Part shown: positions 40,025 to 62,295 of the stretch, piece after piece
Position numbering within the stretch: the first letter of the stretch is position 1
Layout: each line of letters opens with the position of its first letter
From: Rhodanobacteraceae bacterium
GTDB lineage: Bacteria > Pseudomonadota > Gammaproteobacteria > Xanthomonadales > SZUA-5
Assembly: GCA_031422315.1 (NCBI GenBank)
Contig: JANOQN010000072.1
Span: 9,048-73,047, forward strand
DNA: 64,000 nucleotides
Reading direction: 5' to 3'
Made by a program: the position numbers and the translations under genes
The notes under the pieces: generated by a model
What the model saw: only the letters and a program-made list of their open reading frames with translations
The model's database searches: none
What the model was told of the DNA's origin: nothing

Positions 40025-40711
40025 CTAATTGGACGTAGTTGGCCTAACCGTGTGCAGACCTTGCACGTAGCTAGAAAGCGCTTTGATTTCGTCGTCCGTC
40101 AAGTTGTGTGCCACTTGCGACATTACCGCATTGTTTTGCGCACCATCTTTGCCGTAAATCATGCCTTCGCGAAACCGCTCAAGCTGAGATTTGGTGTAGT
40201 CATAATGCTGCCCAGCAATTGCTGGATAGGCCGAACCCGGATTGCCGCGCCCGCTCGGGCCGTGGCAGCCCATGCAAGATGGCAAGCCATTGCGGCCGCC
40301 GCGATATAGCGCCTGACCTTTCTCGACGACAGTTTCGTCAGCATTGCCGACGCTTACTTTTTGTGTGGCGTAATAGGCTGCAATATCGGCCATGTCTTGC
40401 TCAGATAGCGCCGAAGCAAATGCCGCCATAATCGCGTTTTCGCGCTCGCCTGATTTAAACAGCTGCAAATGCCTAACCAAATAAGCGGGATGTTGCCCTG
40501 CGATTTTCGGATTGGCCGGATCAGTGCTGTTGCCATCAACGCCGTGGCAAGCGATGCACGTCGCAGCTTTTTCCTGGCCCGCTTTCGCATCGCCTGCAGC
40601 ATGTACCGATGAAACCGCTAGCAAGCCTGAAAACAACACGCCAACAGACAGGGCCGGTAAAGCCATAGCCATCAACAATCCCCTGGAGAATTCCGCAATA
40701 CGCAACGCCAT
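40025..40711 (-). CDS. Di-haem cytochrome c4
   Basis: CIACH and CMGCH; divergent from engB, the usual arrangement. Confidence 0.93.
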   Translation of the reverse strand: MALRIAEFSRGLLMAMALPALSVGVLFSGLLAVSSVHAAGDAKAGQEKAATCIACHGVDGNSTDPANPKIAGQHPAYLVRHLQLFKSGERENAIMAAFASALSEQDMADIAAYYATQKVSVGNADETVVEKGQALYRGGRNGLPSCMGCHGPSGRGNPGSAYPAIAGQHYDYTKSQLERFREGMIYGKDGAQNNAVMSQVAHNLTDDEIKALSSYVQGLHTVRPTTSN

Positions 40712-58873: not shown

Positions 58874-58975
58874 TTAGCCGGTTTTAGTCAGCGCGAAAAT
58901 GAGCGCTGGCTTGAATACGTAAAATGCGGCCATAGGTTGTTAGTAACAAAACAATTTCGCATTTTTGGATTACGT

Positions 58976-60034
58976 ATGACTGATTTATTTGCACCGCTTA
59001 AGCTGGGCGTGCTTACGCTACCCAATCGCGCCATTATGGCCGCGCTTACCCGCGCACGCGCTGGGCGCAGCCACATTCCGAATGCGCTGATGGCCGAATA
59101 TTACGCACAGCGCGCCAGCGCAGGATTGATTATCACCGAAGCCACGATGGTGGCTGCTGATGGCTGCGCCTTCACGGGTGAAGCTGGCTTGTTTGACGCG
59201 CATTGTGTAGCGGGTTGGAAGTTAGTCACTGACGCCGTACACGCCGCCGGTGGCCGCATAGCCGTGCAGCTTTGGCACCCAGGCAGGGCCGCGCATTCAT
59301 CGCTCAACGGCGGCGCGCAGCCAGTGTCGTCCAGCGATCGTGCAATTGCAGGCGATACGATTCGCACGCCAACCGGAACGCATGCTTATGAAGTGCCTCG
59401 CCGGTTGGCCACTGAAGAAGTCGCGGGCTATGTTTCGCTATTTTCTGCCGCTGCTGAGCGCGCAAAAGCGGCGGGTTTTGACGGCATACAAATCCATGCC
59501 GCGCACGGTTATTTGATCGATCAATTTTTGCGCGATTCGCTCAATGATCGTAGCGATGCTTATGGCGCAAGCGTTCCCGCAAGAGCGAGGTTTTTGTTTG
59601 AAATCGTCGATGCTGTTGCAAATGTGTTTGATCCTGCGCTGATTTCCGTGCGTATATCCCCCTTGGTGCCGTTTAACGATATGTCCGATAGCGATCCAGA
59701 AACGCTGGTCCGATATGTGGCTGAGCAGCTGCAAGTGCGCGGCATTGGCGCGCTCGAATTGCGCCACGCTGATTACGCATCGCCTGCCGAGCGGGCGCTT
59801 GCAAAAGTGGCGCGTGCAAGCTTCAAAGGCAGTCTTTGGGCGAATGGCAACTATGATTTAGCCAGTGCGCAAGCAGCCATTCAAAGCGGTGCGCTTGATG
59901 CAGTGGTGTTCGGCCGACCTTTTATCGCCAATGCCGATTTAGTGCAGCGCTATCGCAGCGGGCAAGTGCTCAATGCAGTGGATTTTTCTACGCTTTATAC
60001 GTCTGGCGCGAAGGGCTATACGGACTACTCTTGA
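58976..60034 (+). CDS. nemA: Alkene reductase (old yellow enzyme, NemA-like)
   Basis: LPNRAIMA.LTR, YY.QRASAGLII.E, QLWH.GR, GYLIDQFL, FGRPFIAN.DL, KGYTDY. Confidence 0.9.
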   Translation: MTDLFAPLKLGVLTLPNRAIMAALTRARAGRSHIPNALMAEYYAQRASAGLIITEATMVAADGCAFTGEAGLFDAHCVAGWKLVTDAVHAAGGRIAVQLWHPGRAAHSSLNGGAQPVSSSDRAIAGDTIRTPTGTHAYEVPRRLATEEVAGYVSLFSAAAERAKAAGFDGIQIHAAHGYLIDQFLRDSLNDRSDAYGASVPARARFLFEIVDAVANVFDPALISVRISPLVPFNDMSDSDPETLVRYVAEQLQVRGIGALELRHADYASPAERALAKVARASFKGSLWANGNYDLASAQAAIQSGALDAVVFGRPFIANADLVQRYRSGQVLNAVDFSTLYTSGAKGYTDYS

Positions 60035-60200: not shown

Positions 60201-61373
60201 CTAAGCCGCTTTCAAACTCACCAACTGCTTCATTAAACCCTCAACGCCGCCGAGTACCGTCAAGCTGCCAACTTTCTCAGCAATTTTTTCCAGCGATTCC
60301 AACTCTTTTAGGCGCAGCAAAATTGGGCTTTCTTCCATCAGCTTGGCGGTGTTGAGCAAGTTGCGCGTAGCGGAAGTTTCTTCACGCCGTTTGATCACAT
60401 TCGCAAGCGCTGCTTTTTCCGCATGCACAACTTGGTTTAGCAGCTCACGCAGCTCGCCCGGTAAAATCAAATCCTTTACGCCAACGCTGATCAGCCGTAC
60501 GCCAAACGCAGCGATCTTCGCAGCGGCGAACTCGTGGATTACCGTATCAAGCGCGCTTTTATTCGCTAGCAGCTCATCTAACGTACGCGTGCCAATGGCA
60601 TGCCGTAAAGCAAATTGTAGCTCTCGATATAGGCCCTCTTTGTAATCCACAATTTCAAATTTTGCCGCATGTGCGTCCACCACTTTCCAGCTCGCGCTTA
60701 GGTTGACCCGCAGGCTTAGTTTATCGCGTGTCAATATTTCTTGACCGCTGACTTCGCTGGCTTGCGCACGGGTATCTAACACGTCAATCTGGACATGCCG
60801 CGCGGATTTCCAAAAACCATAGTTGCCGGGTTTCAGCAAGTTTTGATATTGGCCATCAATGCTCAGCACGCCTAATTCGTGCGGGGCGATCACTTTCAAC
60901 ACGCACAGCCGCTGCACATCTTGCGCCAGTGCTGAGTTAACCGCCGCCGCCAGCATTGTACGCACCAGCGCATCGGCAATTGCAGGCGTACTGAGAGGCA
61001 CGCGTTCAATACGTACGGGTACCGAGCTAACTTGCGCAGTTTTTTTCCAGTACAGCGCACGTGCGCCGGGTGGTAAAATCGCGCTTAAACGTTCTTGTTT
61101 GTACACCAAGCCCAGCTGATCGGGCGCAATATCCACCGCTTCAATATGCTGAGCTAGCTTACCGTTCGGATCACGCAAATGGCTCTCGACGTTCGCCAAC
61201 TTTACTTCGGGCTCGGATACGTCAACCAGTAAAAATTCGCGGCGGCCTGATGGTAAAAAGCGGGAAATCACGCCGGGGCCAGTAATAGCCTCTACGCGGC
61301 CATCGAAAAATTCGATAGCGCAGTGAGCGGGTGAAACAGTGATGCGTCGAAAGCCAAAAATCGAGCCTAACAT
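60201..61373 (-). CDS. Slipin/SPFH (band 7) family protein of the type found in rtc operons
   Basis: VSGQEILTRDK..LRVN, LQFALR..IG.RTLDELL, VKD.ILPGE, RREET.ATR.LLNTAK; AGGAG RBS. Confidence 0.9.
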   Translation of the reverse strand: MLGSIFGFRRITVSPAHCAIEFFDGRVEAITGPGVISRFLPSGRREFLLVDVSEPEVKLANVESHLRDPNGKLAQHIEAVDIAPDQLGLVYKQERLSAILPPGARALYWKKTAQVSSVPVRIERVPLSTPAIADALVRTMLAAAVNSALAQDVQRLCVLKVIAPHELGVLSIDGQYQNLLKPGNYGFWKSARHVQIDVLDTRAQASEVSGQEILTRDKLSLRVNLSASWKVVDAHAAKFEIVDYKEGLYRELQFALRHAIGTRTLDELLANKSALDTVIHEFAAAKIAAFGVRLISVGVKDLILPGELRELLNQVVHAEKAALANVIKRREETSATRNLLNTAKLMEESPILLRLKELESLEKIAEKVGSLTVLGGVEGLMKQLVSLKAA

Positions 61374-61467
61374 GAGAAGTCTCCTAATTATTTATAATGT
61401 GATTTTCTTTATTTTAATAGTCTGTTGTCAGTGGATTGAGGCTGGGTTTGTTAAAAAATAAGTGTTG

Positions 61468-61662
61468 CCACCCCACGTCTAAGCTGCGGGCTAACGCAAA
61501 GCGAGCGCGGCTTTCCTTGAGAATTACTCGCAATTCATGCAAGGCATCTGCATGAACTTGCACAGCAATTCAGCTGGCGCGGTGCGAGCCCTTAAATCGT
61601 TAGCGCGGGCGCTATTGACGCTGCTGCGCTACCCGGTGTTTTGGGTAGTCAGCCTGGGGTGG
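61468..61662 (-). ncRNA. Putative ~195-nt multi-stem structured RNA
   Basis: Ends pair (CCACCCCA / TGGGGTGG); nested helices CTACCC/GGGTAG, GCTAACG/CGTTAGC, TTCATGCA/TGCATGAA. Confidence 0.55.
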
Positions 61663-61715
61663 AAACGTGCTCAAACTTTCGTTCAAGCGGTTTGTTACAA
61701 GATCGCGTTGTAGGC

Positions 61716-61788
61716 GATAAACGGCAGGATTCGAACCCGCTACCGGCAAATTATGCGTTTGCTGCTCTACCCAATGAGCTACGTTAAT
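61716..61788 (-). tRNA. tRNA-like RNA with CAT at the anticodon position, non-canonical (G33, acceptor mismatch, no CCA)
   Basis: ATTAACG TA GCTC ATTGGGTA GAGC A GCAAA CGCATAA TTTGC CGGTA GCGGG TTCGAAT CCTGC CGTTTAT C folds as a cloverleaf. Confidence 0.8.
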
Positions 61789-61790
61789 TG

Positions 61791-61836
61791 TGCGAATGTA
61801 AGGAATCGAACCTTGTTTAGCACCAGCTGCATTCGC
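61791..61836 (-). ncRNA. Mini tRNA-like element (acceptor stem plus T arm, no anticodon arm)
   Basis: GCGAATG-CAGCTGGTGCTAAAC-AAGG TTCGATT CCTT-A-CATTCGC: 7-bp perfect stem and T-loop hairpin. Confidence 0.65.
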
Positions 61837-61850
61837 CATTGAAAAGCTTC

Positions 61851-61922
61851 TCCGCATCGGTACGTCAGATTCCAAAGGAAGTGACGCCAGGCCGCTTACA
61901 AGCGGCTTTCTTAGCTGCGTGG
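61851..61922 (-). ncRNA. Possible Y-RNA-like structured element
   Basis: CGCA...GCCGCTT/AAGCGGC hairpin...GCGTCA CTTCCTTTGGAATC TGACGT...TGCG. Confidence 0.4.
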
Positions 61923-62026
61923 TTACTTGTTCAATGAGTGCTCGACTTGCGTCGAAATTTGGAAGGTGTTGCTGGCATTTGTATTGCTGGCATTTATGGG
62001 CCTTAGCTTGGAAAGATAAAATGTCT

Positions 62027-62043
62027 TTGCAGGAACCGTGCCA
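62027..62043 (-). promoter_or_regulatory. sigma54 (-24/-12) promoter
   Basis: Minus strand TGGCACGGTTCCTGCAA, pointing into the RNA array and slipin gene. Confidence 0.85.
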
Positions 62044-62260
62044 GGGGGTTTTGGCGGTTTATTGGCTTGATTGCTATACGTTTGGATAAAAACGTGTGTT
62101 TTTAGATCATTAAAATCTCAATCAGCTATCGAAATCCGAGGGCACATGGATAGCATTGATGATTAGGAAACGCATACCGTTTGAAGCTTGTTAGATTGCA
62201 TGCGCGCGCATTGTGGATTTGCAGTGCCGCTTTAAGCTGATTGAAATTTGAATCATCCTA

Positions 62261-62295
62261 GAAAAGAAAAACCGCCCAAAGGCGGTTTTTCTTTT
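62261..62295. terminator. Intrinsic terminator of the TonB receptor gene
   Basis: AAAAGAAAAACCGCC-CAAA-GGCGGTTTTTCTTTT. Confidence 0.88.

Follow-up and report, generated by a model that had tools for sequence, protein, structure and literature searches.

A multi-domain tRNA-like leader RNA and a Band-7 slipin gene as a probable stand-alone module of Rtc-type RNA repair in a Rhodanobacteraceae genome

Described RNA-repair systems and the locus in the window

In some bacteria, RtcB was predicted by Burroughs and Aravind in 2016 to be encoded beside a Band-7 protein and a tRNA-like RNA, the 'b7a-tRNA', a prediction described as lacking experimental validation in the later preprint that quotes it (bioRxiv 10.1101/312249). 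Here we describe a locus of this kind from a Rhodanobacteraceae bacterium (GenBank assembly GCA_031422315.1), found in a stretch of 64,000 nucleotides (nt) of contig JANOQN010000072.1 (positions 9,048 to 73,047; hereafter the window, in whose numbering all coordinates are given), in which a sigma54-type promoter precedes a structured leader RNA and the gene of a slipin, an SPFH/Band-7 protein. Similar to the predicted pair, the tRNA-like RNA of the window lies directly upstream of the Band-7 gene and on the same strand, but the two are found away from RtcB, and the RNA is far larger than one tRNA-like unit, adding a covarying 5' domain, a second and minimal tRNA-like unit, and a 3' domain of 200 nt. 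This kind of locus has therefore already been predicted, and the arrangement is not unprecedented. What is added beyond the prediction as quoted in bioRxiv 10.1101/312249 is a covarying RNA of several domains, the finding that the stand-alone cassette is common and autonomous, and three further elements, namely the hint of an RtcR box, the hint from RNA libraries and a vault-like domain order.

Three other described systems are close to the locus. The Pseudomonas aeruginosa rtc locus is reported to consist of rtcR, PA4582 (an SPFH protein, PaFlo8), rtcB, PA4584 and rtcA (PMC8619066, PMC13086221). Four Pseudomonas loci that we compared (L095, L098, L107 and L109) share with the window the promoter type, the 5' domain, the two tRNA-like units and the slipin family; they have rtcR as a divergent, adjacent gene and rtcB after slipin, whereas the window cassette is detached from both and its first tRNA-like unit is reduced to an acceptor stem and a T arm. 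The rsr-yrlBA-rtcBA operon of Salmonella, reported to be controlled by RtcR and sigma54, encodes a Ro60 orthologue and the tRNA-like Y RNA YrlA (PMC7790460, PMC4201824), and RtcR is reported to be activated there by damaged tRNA ends (PMC7790460). The window locus resembles that operon as an RtcR/sigma54 unit in which a tRNA-mimicking non-coding RNA would be co-transcribed with a scaffold-type protein, the control by RtcR being putative in the window. Unlike YrlA, the tRNA-like parts of the window RNA are two linear tandem units instead of a single permuted one, and the partner is an SPFH protein, not Ro/TROVE. In the TrcR regulon of Anabaena, the unlinked slipin gene alr0740 is reported to be de-repressed under translational stress along with rtcB, an HNH endonuclease gene and a tRNA operon (PMC10272220). 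That slipin is unlinked from rtcB, as in the window, and its co-regulation sets a precedent for the split arrangement seen here, although the Anabaena regulator is the repressor TrcR and no sigma54 is involved.

We consider it likely that the window locus is a stand-alone Band-7/b7a-tRNA accessory module of Rtc-type RNA repair, working in the manner proposed in the last section. No rtcB, rtcA or rtcR lies in the window, as the original prediction from this DNA had stated, and the sole RtcB of the genome is encoded on another contig (C66), so that the cassette departs from the Band-7/b7a-tRNA module in its adjacency to RtcB; we filed it as an unlinked variant because its slipin and leader are homologous to rtcB-linked ones. 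The cassette consists of the following features, given in minus-strand reading order and followed by the neighbouring genes.

62065-62098, no strand assigned: RtcR-box-like element of the TATCC-N5-TATAGC type, found with a position weight matrix (PWM)
62028-62043, minus strand: sigma54-type promoter TGGCACGGTTCCTGCA (GG-N10-GC), by match to the consensus sequence
61942-61955, minus strand: small hairpin with a GNRA loop, in the initial ~105 nt of the transcript, which are poorly conserved
61857-61910, minus strand: 5' domain of two hairpins, by covariation and fold z score
61792-61836, minus strand: unit 1, a mini tRNA-like module, by sequence and T-arm covariation
61716-61788, minus strand: unit 2, a non-decoding cloverleaf (the b7a-tRNA proper), by ARAGORN and the Rfam tRNA model
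61669-61718, minus strand: two short hairpins (61718-61702 and, with a GAAA loop, 61688-61669), by RNAalifold and minimum free energy (MFE)
61464-61666, minus strand: 3' domain, a multi-stem structure of ~200 nt, by fold z score and closing-helix covariation
61453-61458, minus strand: U-rich tail, 5-10 nt past the closing helix
61385-61381, minus strand: Shine-Dalgarno sequence AGGAG upstream of slipin
60201-61373, minus strand: slipin gene, 390-amino-acid SPFH/Band-7 protein (Pfam Band_7, E 4e-25)
58937-60034, plus strand: nemA-like Oxidored_FMN gene, converging with the slipin gene
62315 upward: terminal part of a TonB-dependent receptor gene, first in minus-strand reading order
near 62260-62295: terminator hairpin after the TonB-dependent receptor gene
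270 nt in minus-strand reading: spacer that follows the TonB-dependent receptor gene and precedes the sigma54 motif

Domains and covariation of the leader RNA

The original prediction had pictured an array of four separate structured RNAs ahead of slipin. All four lie where it had placed them, as do the sigma54 promoter and the SPFH gene, but the best reading makes the four elements domains of a single composite leader RNA (about 450 nt) that is conserved among relatives: Rfam tRNA matches above the gathering score occur upstream of slipin and on its strand in 25 of 26 relatives' loci, the sole exception being a locus with just 538 nt of upstream DNA, and in every locus 317-741 nt separate the last tRNA-like unit from the start of slipin. 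The open reading frame (ORF) list holds only frames of 40-87 amino acids in 61374-62027 (654 nt), none of them credible, and the leader can be called non-coding because similarity among relatives is visible in all three frames when these are compared by tblastn. A small conserved peptide was ruled out for this reason, the three-frame matches being conservation at the nucleotide level. Mimicry of rRNA was also considered and dropped, as Rfam searched to E 10 gave no rRNA-like match in the leader; no small- or large-subunit rRNA was found in the genome for comparison. Covariation was analysed in pieces, with one alignment each for the 5' domain (A2), unit 2 (A3) and the 3' closing helix (A4), and was found in all three.

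At the 5' end, the hairpin at 61942-61955 varies in stem sequence with pairing kept, as judged by eye in the genus alignment. The transcript's initial ~105 nt also hold a 15-nt tandem duplication (61960-61990, minus strand), absent from three congeners, and a near-consensus sigma54 motif created by it on the plus strand (TGGCAT-N5-TTGCT, 61973-61988) is probably a by-product of the repeat. The 5' domain, previously seen as a hairpin-rich element, folds with a z score of -2.63 into P1 (61906-61891) and then a long P2 (61887-61862), the latter formed by a conserved CUGGYG linker pairing with a CGUAYC flank. A regular expression found this domain in 66 of 107 loci, and 38 of the 66 entered the alignment, where 94.5% of the pair cells hold standard pairs (70.9% when shuffled; 26-51% in slid controls) and double-sided changes number 115 against 30.8 in shuffles, with one pair alternating between U-A in 22 sequences and C-G in 16. 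P1 is often T-arm-like in relatives such as L023 and L024 (GGGUUC...CCC with a 7-nt loop), and judged from these sequences the leader may hold in P1 a third, cryptic tRNA-derived module.

The two tRNA-like units follow. Unit 1, which the original prediction had described as a mini-tRNA, has a 7-bp acceptor stem, a short hairpin and a T arm but lacks the D and anticodon arms. Covariation of the T arm is seen in 17 homologues, with double changes at 4 of 5 pairs, and by eye only, the complementarity of the acceptor stem is kept with differing sequences in relatives, many of which also terminate unit 1 in NCCA. The model of the tmRNA tRNA-like domain gives 17.3 bits, below its gathering score, for the element of L010 that is homologous to unit 1. 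Unit 2 is called tRNA-Met(cat) by ARAGORN and scores 49.5 bits with the Rfam tRNA model (gathering score 29), and it is indeed a non-canonical cloverleaf: in the window, its acceptor stem holds a T-T mismatch, position 33 is a G and CCA is absent. To its alignment, 65 of 69 ARAGORN-called proximal units (70-77 nt; four near-duplicates dropped) contributed, and 91.9% of the pairs are formed overall (66.7% when shuffled), a figure biased toward cloverleaves by the choice of rows with a tRNA finder. No variation occurs in the D stem, and pairing reaches 98.7% in the anticodon stem and 100% in the T stem; at the three outer acceptor pairs, pairing is missing in 22-39 of the 65 sequences. A canonical decoding tRNA would have a 7-bp acceptor stem, U33 and a kept anticodon, all of which unit 2 lacks; since the 'anticodons' of four congeners are cat, att, aag and tag, and since 12 of 73 proximal units have loops of 6 or 8 nt at this place, we conclude that unit 2 does not decode. 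These variable loops, often of 6 or 8 nt, also argue against a sequence-specific decoy, decoy being one of the three roles (with RtcR ligand and scaffold for the SPFH protein) that the original prediction had suggested for the tRNA mimics.

On this evidence it is very unlikely that the units are spare or decoy tRNAs, cut out by RNase P and 3' nucleases to replace damaged tRNAs or to soak up anticodon nucleases, with the slipin as an unrelated passenger. Such a role would be in keeping with the 12 loci that have at least four same-strand tRNA calls in ordinary-looking arrays before slipin, with the NCCA ends of unit 1 in several relatives and the CCA encoded by some unit 2 homologues, and with the tRNA operon reported to be co-regulated with slipin and rtcB in Anabaena (PMC10272220). 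It is contradicted by the acceptor mismatch, G33 and missing CCA of unit 2 in the window, by the change of anticodon among the four congeners, by the irregular loops and unpaired outer acceptor pairs just counted, and by the embedding of both units between conserved, covarying 5' and 3' domains. As an observation on the arrays themselves, the 12 loci (L059, L063, L070, L086, L112, L115, L118, L122, L127, L130, L133 and L029) have 4-28 same-strand tRNA genes around the cassette and recall the stress-induced tRNA operon of Anabaena; in L127, tRNA genes flank slipin on both sides and precede rtcB.

Past unit 2, the two short hairpins at 61718-61702 and 61688-61669 were recovered both by RNAalifold on four genus leaders and by the MFE fold of the single sequence, and their stems differ in sequence between L004 and L005-L007 with pairing retained (by eye). 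The 3' domain, previously noted as a multi-stem RNA of ~195 nt, has an MFE of -85.6 compared with -67.7 +/- 4.3 for shuffled sequences (z -4.2), and none of 200 shuffles folds as well. An 11-bp helix (61666-61656 with 61474-61464) closes the domain, varying in sequence between lineages while keeping its pairing: in 18 aligned loci, 91.7% of the pairs are formed compared with 77.9% when shuffled, with double changes at 9 of 11 pairs, a level of pairing that is inflated because the rows were chosen by a helix search that found this very helix. The statistic of that generic long-range search proved worthless, as at least 10 of 11 pairs were found in 71 of 71 loci but also in 39 of 40 shuffles, and only the positionally conserved helix was carried forward from it.

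Some RNA-library data hint that part of the leader is present as RNA. Two metatranscriptome runs, from two studies, contain contigs 97-99% identical to the window that cover 61605-61906 and 61638-61910, respectively, and include no slipin coding sequence except one 42-nt piece with an unlike flank. The upstream limits of these contigs (61906 and 61910) fall at hairpin P1, where the 5' domain opens, ~105 nt past the expected start, which fits a stable, 5'-trimmed RNA. Two further runs (X3 and X7), of DNA or of unrecorded library kind, cover slipin and leader of related strains and are uninformative on expression.

These data bear on whether the leader is mainly a cis-acting regulatory 5' untranslated region, acting as an attenuator or as a sensor, for example of tRNA-binding factors or ribosome state, by which transcription or translation of slipin would be allowed or stopped, in place of a trans-acting partner, which we regard as quite unlikely. 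The leader lies entirely between the promoter and the slipin start, in many loci the closing helix is GC-rich and leads into a U-rich tail (ACYUUUU or CCUAUUU at this position in relatives), and RNA-library contigs over the leader without the coding sequence are the pattern expected of premature termination. However, a terminator scan called no canonical terminator on the minus strand between 61374 and 62027, the U run of the window lies 9 nt past the closing helix, which is not the arrangement of an intrinsic-terminator attenuator, and the spacer from the RNA to the Shine-Dalgarno sequence is unconserved at 80-280 nt. To our knowledge, tandem tRNA-like units whose elbow is invariant characterise the RNAs of ribonucleoproteins such as YrlA and tmRNA, and not known attenuators.

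Distribution, promoter and the link to RtcR

Full-length slipin orthologues (39-78% identity) were found in 26 of 60 related genomes, and a wider scan gave at least 524 relatives, which belong to Gamma- and Betaproteobacteria. Among the matches listed, the closest with a name comes from a Rhodanobacteraceae metagenome-assembled genome (76% identity). In a census of 105 slipin loci, rtcB follows slipin in 42: rtcR, leader, slipin and rtcB occur together in 18, and leader, slipin and rtcB with no rtcR seen in 24. One locus has rtcR and slipin without rtcB, and 39 have neither rtcR nor rtcB within their flanks. In 23 loci the flanks are too short to classify. With 90 loci given as classifiable, the stand-alone form is common (39 of 90). 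The homology of the window leader and slipin to those of the 18 and 24 Rtc-linked loci bears out the tie to RNA repair that the original prediction had drawn, but not the relation to Y RNAs that went with it. The Rfam YrlA model (RF02553) matches 61740-61839, from the T arm of unit 1 to the D arm of unit 2, with a sub-threshold 29.8 bits against a gathering score of 69, relatives' leaders score 30-33 bits, likewise below the gathering score, and no Ro/TROVE protein was found above the cut-off in this 95.7% complete genome (best match 21 bits against a 23-bit cut-off, on another contig).

A search of the rest of the genome for rtcR and rtcB, proposed as a check together with that for rsr, returned a single RtcR and a single RtcB profile match, both on C66, where an rtcA-like ORF comes after rtcB, identified by its sequence and by tblastn matches and not by Pfam. 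This rtcR-rtcB-rtcA set is intact and has its own promoter. A candidate third Rtc locus at RlaP (PF10127) matches on C11 was rejected, the high-scoring PWM site near them being inside a coding sequence of a polysaccharide cluster. In two congeners, rtcR and rtcB are not neighbours: in G002 (L052) about 3 kb separates rtcR from rtcB, including a CAGCTTGA repeat run and an antitoxin-like ORF, and in G003 (L054) rtcR is followed by a mutS-like gene, the genome, 74% complete, having yielded no RtcB. The rtcB promoters of the family (C66 of this genome, G000, at ~40300-40440, and L034-L051) have the form TGGCACGG-N3/4-(C/T)TGA, with GA instead of GC in the -12 element, and an IHF-like block of the AAATCAAT type lies ~35 nt upstream.

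Although rtcB directly follows slipin in many other bacteria, it is extremely improbable that the window holds a decaying rtc operon left by a recent rtcB deletion, a reading already contradicted on several counts. The slipin frame is intact, with no stops and 78% identity to three congeners, and pairing is retained in all RNA domains. Within the genus the cassette is kept in four species in four different neighbourhoods, and it behaves as a self-contained unit, in agreement with the stand-alone module of the original prediction, and not as an operon stump. The frequency of the stand-alone form and the intact rtcR-rtcB-rtcA set elsewhere in the genome point the same way.

The sigma54 promoter at 62043-62028 agrees with the consensus TGGCAC-N5-TTGCW at 10 of 11 positions and is kept at the same place in all 4 genus loci, in line with the near-consensus promoter first proposed. 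A loose form of the pattern (TGGCA[CT]-N5-[TC]TGC[AT], searched on both strands of the 5.08-Mb genome) has 58 matches, so that ~0.001 would be expected per 250-nt spacer, and rpoN is present in the genome (contig C85). All 19 slipin loci with rtcR as a divergent neighbour have a promoter of the form TGGCACG-N4-(T/C)(C/T)GC, to which the window promoter is closely alike. A second, sigma70-like match lies nearer to slipin (CTGACA-18-GAAAAT, 61402-61431, minus strand), within A/T-rich spacer sequence that separates the RNA from the slipin start and is seen only in this genome among the genus loci compared, and as a candidate promoter it could allow slipin expression independent of RtcR.

A hint of RtcR control comes from the sequence upstream of the promoter. 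The rtcR-rtcB spacers of related genomes share a box of the TATCC-N5-GATAAA type, and a PWM built from 7 such intergenic sites, excluding this genome, placed the rtcB site of this genome in the top 4 of 10.16 million positions. With the same matrix, 62065-62098 ranks 56th on one strand and 179th on the other, ~0.002 sites of rank 56 being expected within the 300 positions tested, and L005 and L007 score at the same position. An earlier PWM from Pseudomonas/Burkholderia-type sites separated the sites of this genome poorly and was replaced by this one from closer relatives. RtcR control of the window promoter is plausible: the site ranks high in the PWM, but congener L006 has no scoring site and the spacing of 45 nt is unusual.

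Several observations weigh against the proposed membership in an RtcR-controlled repair module. The link to RtcR depends on the 7-site PWM, which L006 fails, and the box lies 45 nt from the -24 element, compared with ~110-147 nt in rtcR-rtcB and rtcR-slipin loci; the earlier PWM, from 12 sites, ranks the slipin upstream region 404th and the rtcB site of this genome 150th. In the family's other genera, palindromes precede the leader and no sigma54 promoter can be recognised there. The RNA-library evidence consists of contigs only, which are not strain-resolved, and such libraries can contain DNA. Of the 27 genomes with slipin, 12 show no RtcR and 5 no RtcB, including ones that are 95-100% complete, so the cassette does not generally depend on Rtc. 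Finally, binding of the RNA to slipin is a proposal by analogy with Ro and YrlA.

The nearness of the box to the promoter and its absence from L006 would also suit a true sigma54 promoter served by an enhancer-binding protein other than RtcR, with a signal unrelated to RNA damage, as would the finding of the cassette and no RtcR in G004 (72% complete) and the clear shift of cassette regulation between genera. We hold this to be unlikely, given that the promoter core is nearly identical to those of the 19 rtcR-linked slipin loci, that the leader is homologous to leaders starting beside rtcR, and that the PWM ranking the rtcB site of this genome in the top 4 also picks the window site.

Outside the genus, no convincing sigma54 promoter was found in the family, the candidate of L013 (CGGCAT-N5-TTGCG) not being kept in L018. 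Perfect or near-perfect palindromes occupy the place of the genus promoter ~80-130 nt before the 5' domain in L014-L016, and palindromes likewise precede the 5' domain in L010, L011, L020 and L021; examples are GATTTATCGA-N5-TCGATAAATC and TTCGAATCGA...TCGATTCAA. These sequences suggest a possible repressor-type control of the cassette in other genera. Regulation of the cassette has evidently been exchanged between genera.

The slipin and a possible ribonucleoprotein

The single SPFH gene that the original prediction placed in convergence with nemA encodes a protein with its Pfam Band_7 match at residues 161-332. Its Kyte-Doolittle profile (window of 19) reaches a maximum of only 1.52, at residue 287 inside the SPFH domain, and shows no hydrophobic anchor or hairpin at the beta-rich N terminus, no dedicated membrane-helix predictor having been run; together with the predicted model, this hydropathy profile shows a predicted soluble, membrane-free SPFH protein. 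The model (mean predicted local distance difference test score, pLDDT, 80.9) consists of three beta-rich repeats, the SPFH domain and a long helix. In sequence comparison with solved structures, stomatin, QmcA and HflK/C came nearest, and an NCBIfam search returned HflK/HflC only, all sub-threshold. The SPFH core superposes on stomatin with Z 18.1 and a root-mean-square deviation (rmsd) of 1.1 over 104 residues, and the closest solved relatives form rings or cages. A homodimer prediction scored 0.00, 'no answer', and speaks neither for nor against oligomers. Residues 81-115 and 161-194 form a weak internal repeat (local score 44). In the model, the three similar beta-rich units before the SPFH core suggest a duplication of N-terminal SPFH strands.

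Over its full length, the model resembles the major vault protein (MVP), the only solved fold to span residues 9-373 (MVP 272-715; Z 11.6, Foldseek E 2e-11), with 226-252 residues aligned at 13-14% identity and an rmsd of 4.6-6.7 A; structure-search rows for ribosomal protein S3a-type and FliL folds are confined to the SPFH core. Similar to MVP in the eukaryotic vault, the slipin has beta-rich repeats, an SPFH 'shoulder' and a long helix, and both proteins have no membrane anchor and are paired with a structured RNA, vault RNA in the case of MVP. The differences are that MVP has 9 repeats and the slipin 3, that the SPFH core of the slipin is closer to stomatin, and that a cage is known only for MVP. 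Band-7 and TROVE scaffolds were reportedly linked to the vault particle by Burroughs and Aravind in 2016. A preprint on bacterial MVP-like proteins (10.1101/872010), which are different and much longer, discusses how the MVP shoulder is homologous to Band-7 and does not mention RNA repair.

For the stand-alone repair module that we favour, we infer RtcR dependence, RNA processing, RNA-protein binding and biochemical role as follows. The sigma54 promoter would drive a single transcript of the ~450-nt non-coding RNA and then slipin, and the activator in the genus would probably be RtcR, encoded with rtcBA on the other contig. When damaged tRNA ends activate RtcR, the window promoter would fire along with that of rtcBA, so that the RNA and the slipin would be made together, and the leader would be trimmed to a stable RNA species. 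Its unit 2 cloverleaf has an invariant D/T 'elbow' and a shortened acceptor stem. The RNA, with two tRNA-shaped modules and the flanking domains, may join an oligomeric, soluble SPFH assembly as a ribonucleoprotein scaffold, which during RNA damage would hold or present tRNA-binding factors or broken tRNAs via its tRNA-shaped surfaces, a role analogous to that of Ro with YrlA in the Salmonella rtc operons. The task of the cassette cannot be only to assist the ligase, because it is often found without RtcB or RtcR.

A bolder form of this scheme is possible but doubtful: the RNA and the slipin might form a soluble, vault-like ribonucleoprotein cage whose tRNA-shaped modules recruit or enclose damaged tRNAs or tRNA-binding enzymes, switched on by RtcR and independent of RtcB. 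This would make it the prokaryotic equivalent of the eukaryotic vault, and possibly an ancestor of it. The ligase RtcB could be dispensable for such a cage, as the cassette occurs in some genomes that have no RtcB, and if the cage exists, its RNA would represent an unrecognised class of large structured RNA. The Band-7/b7a-tRNA pair is among the least understood parts of bacterial RNA-repair systems, and in the literature searched a single paper, the preprint quoted above, mentions it. A compact, self-contained 1.9-kb unit of promoter, RNA and protein lends itself to experiments on the handling of RNA by SPFH proteins and on the purpose of tRNA mimicry, be it scaffold, sensor or decoy.

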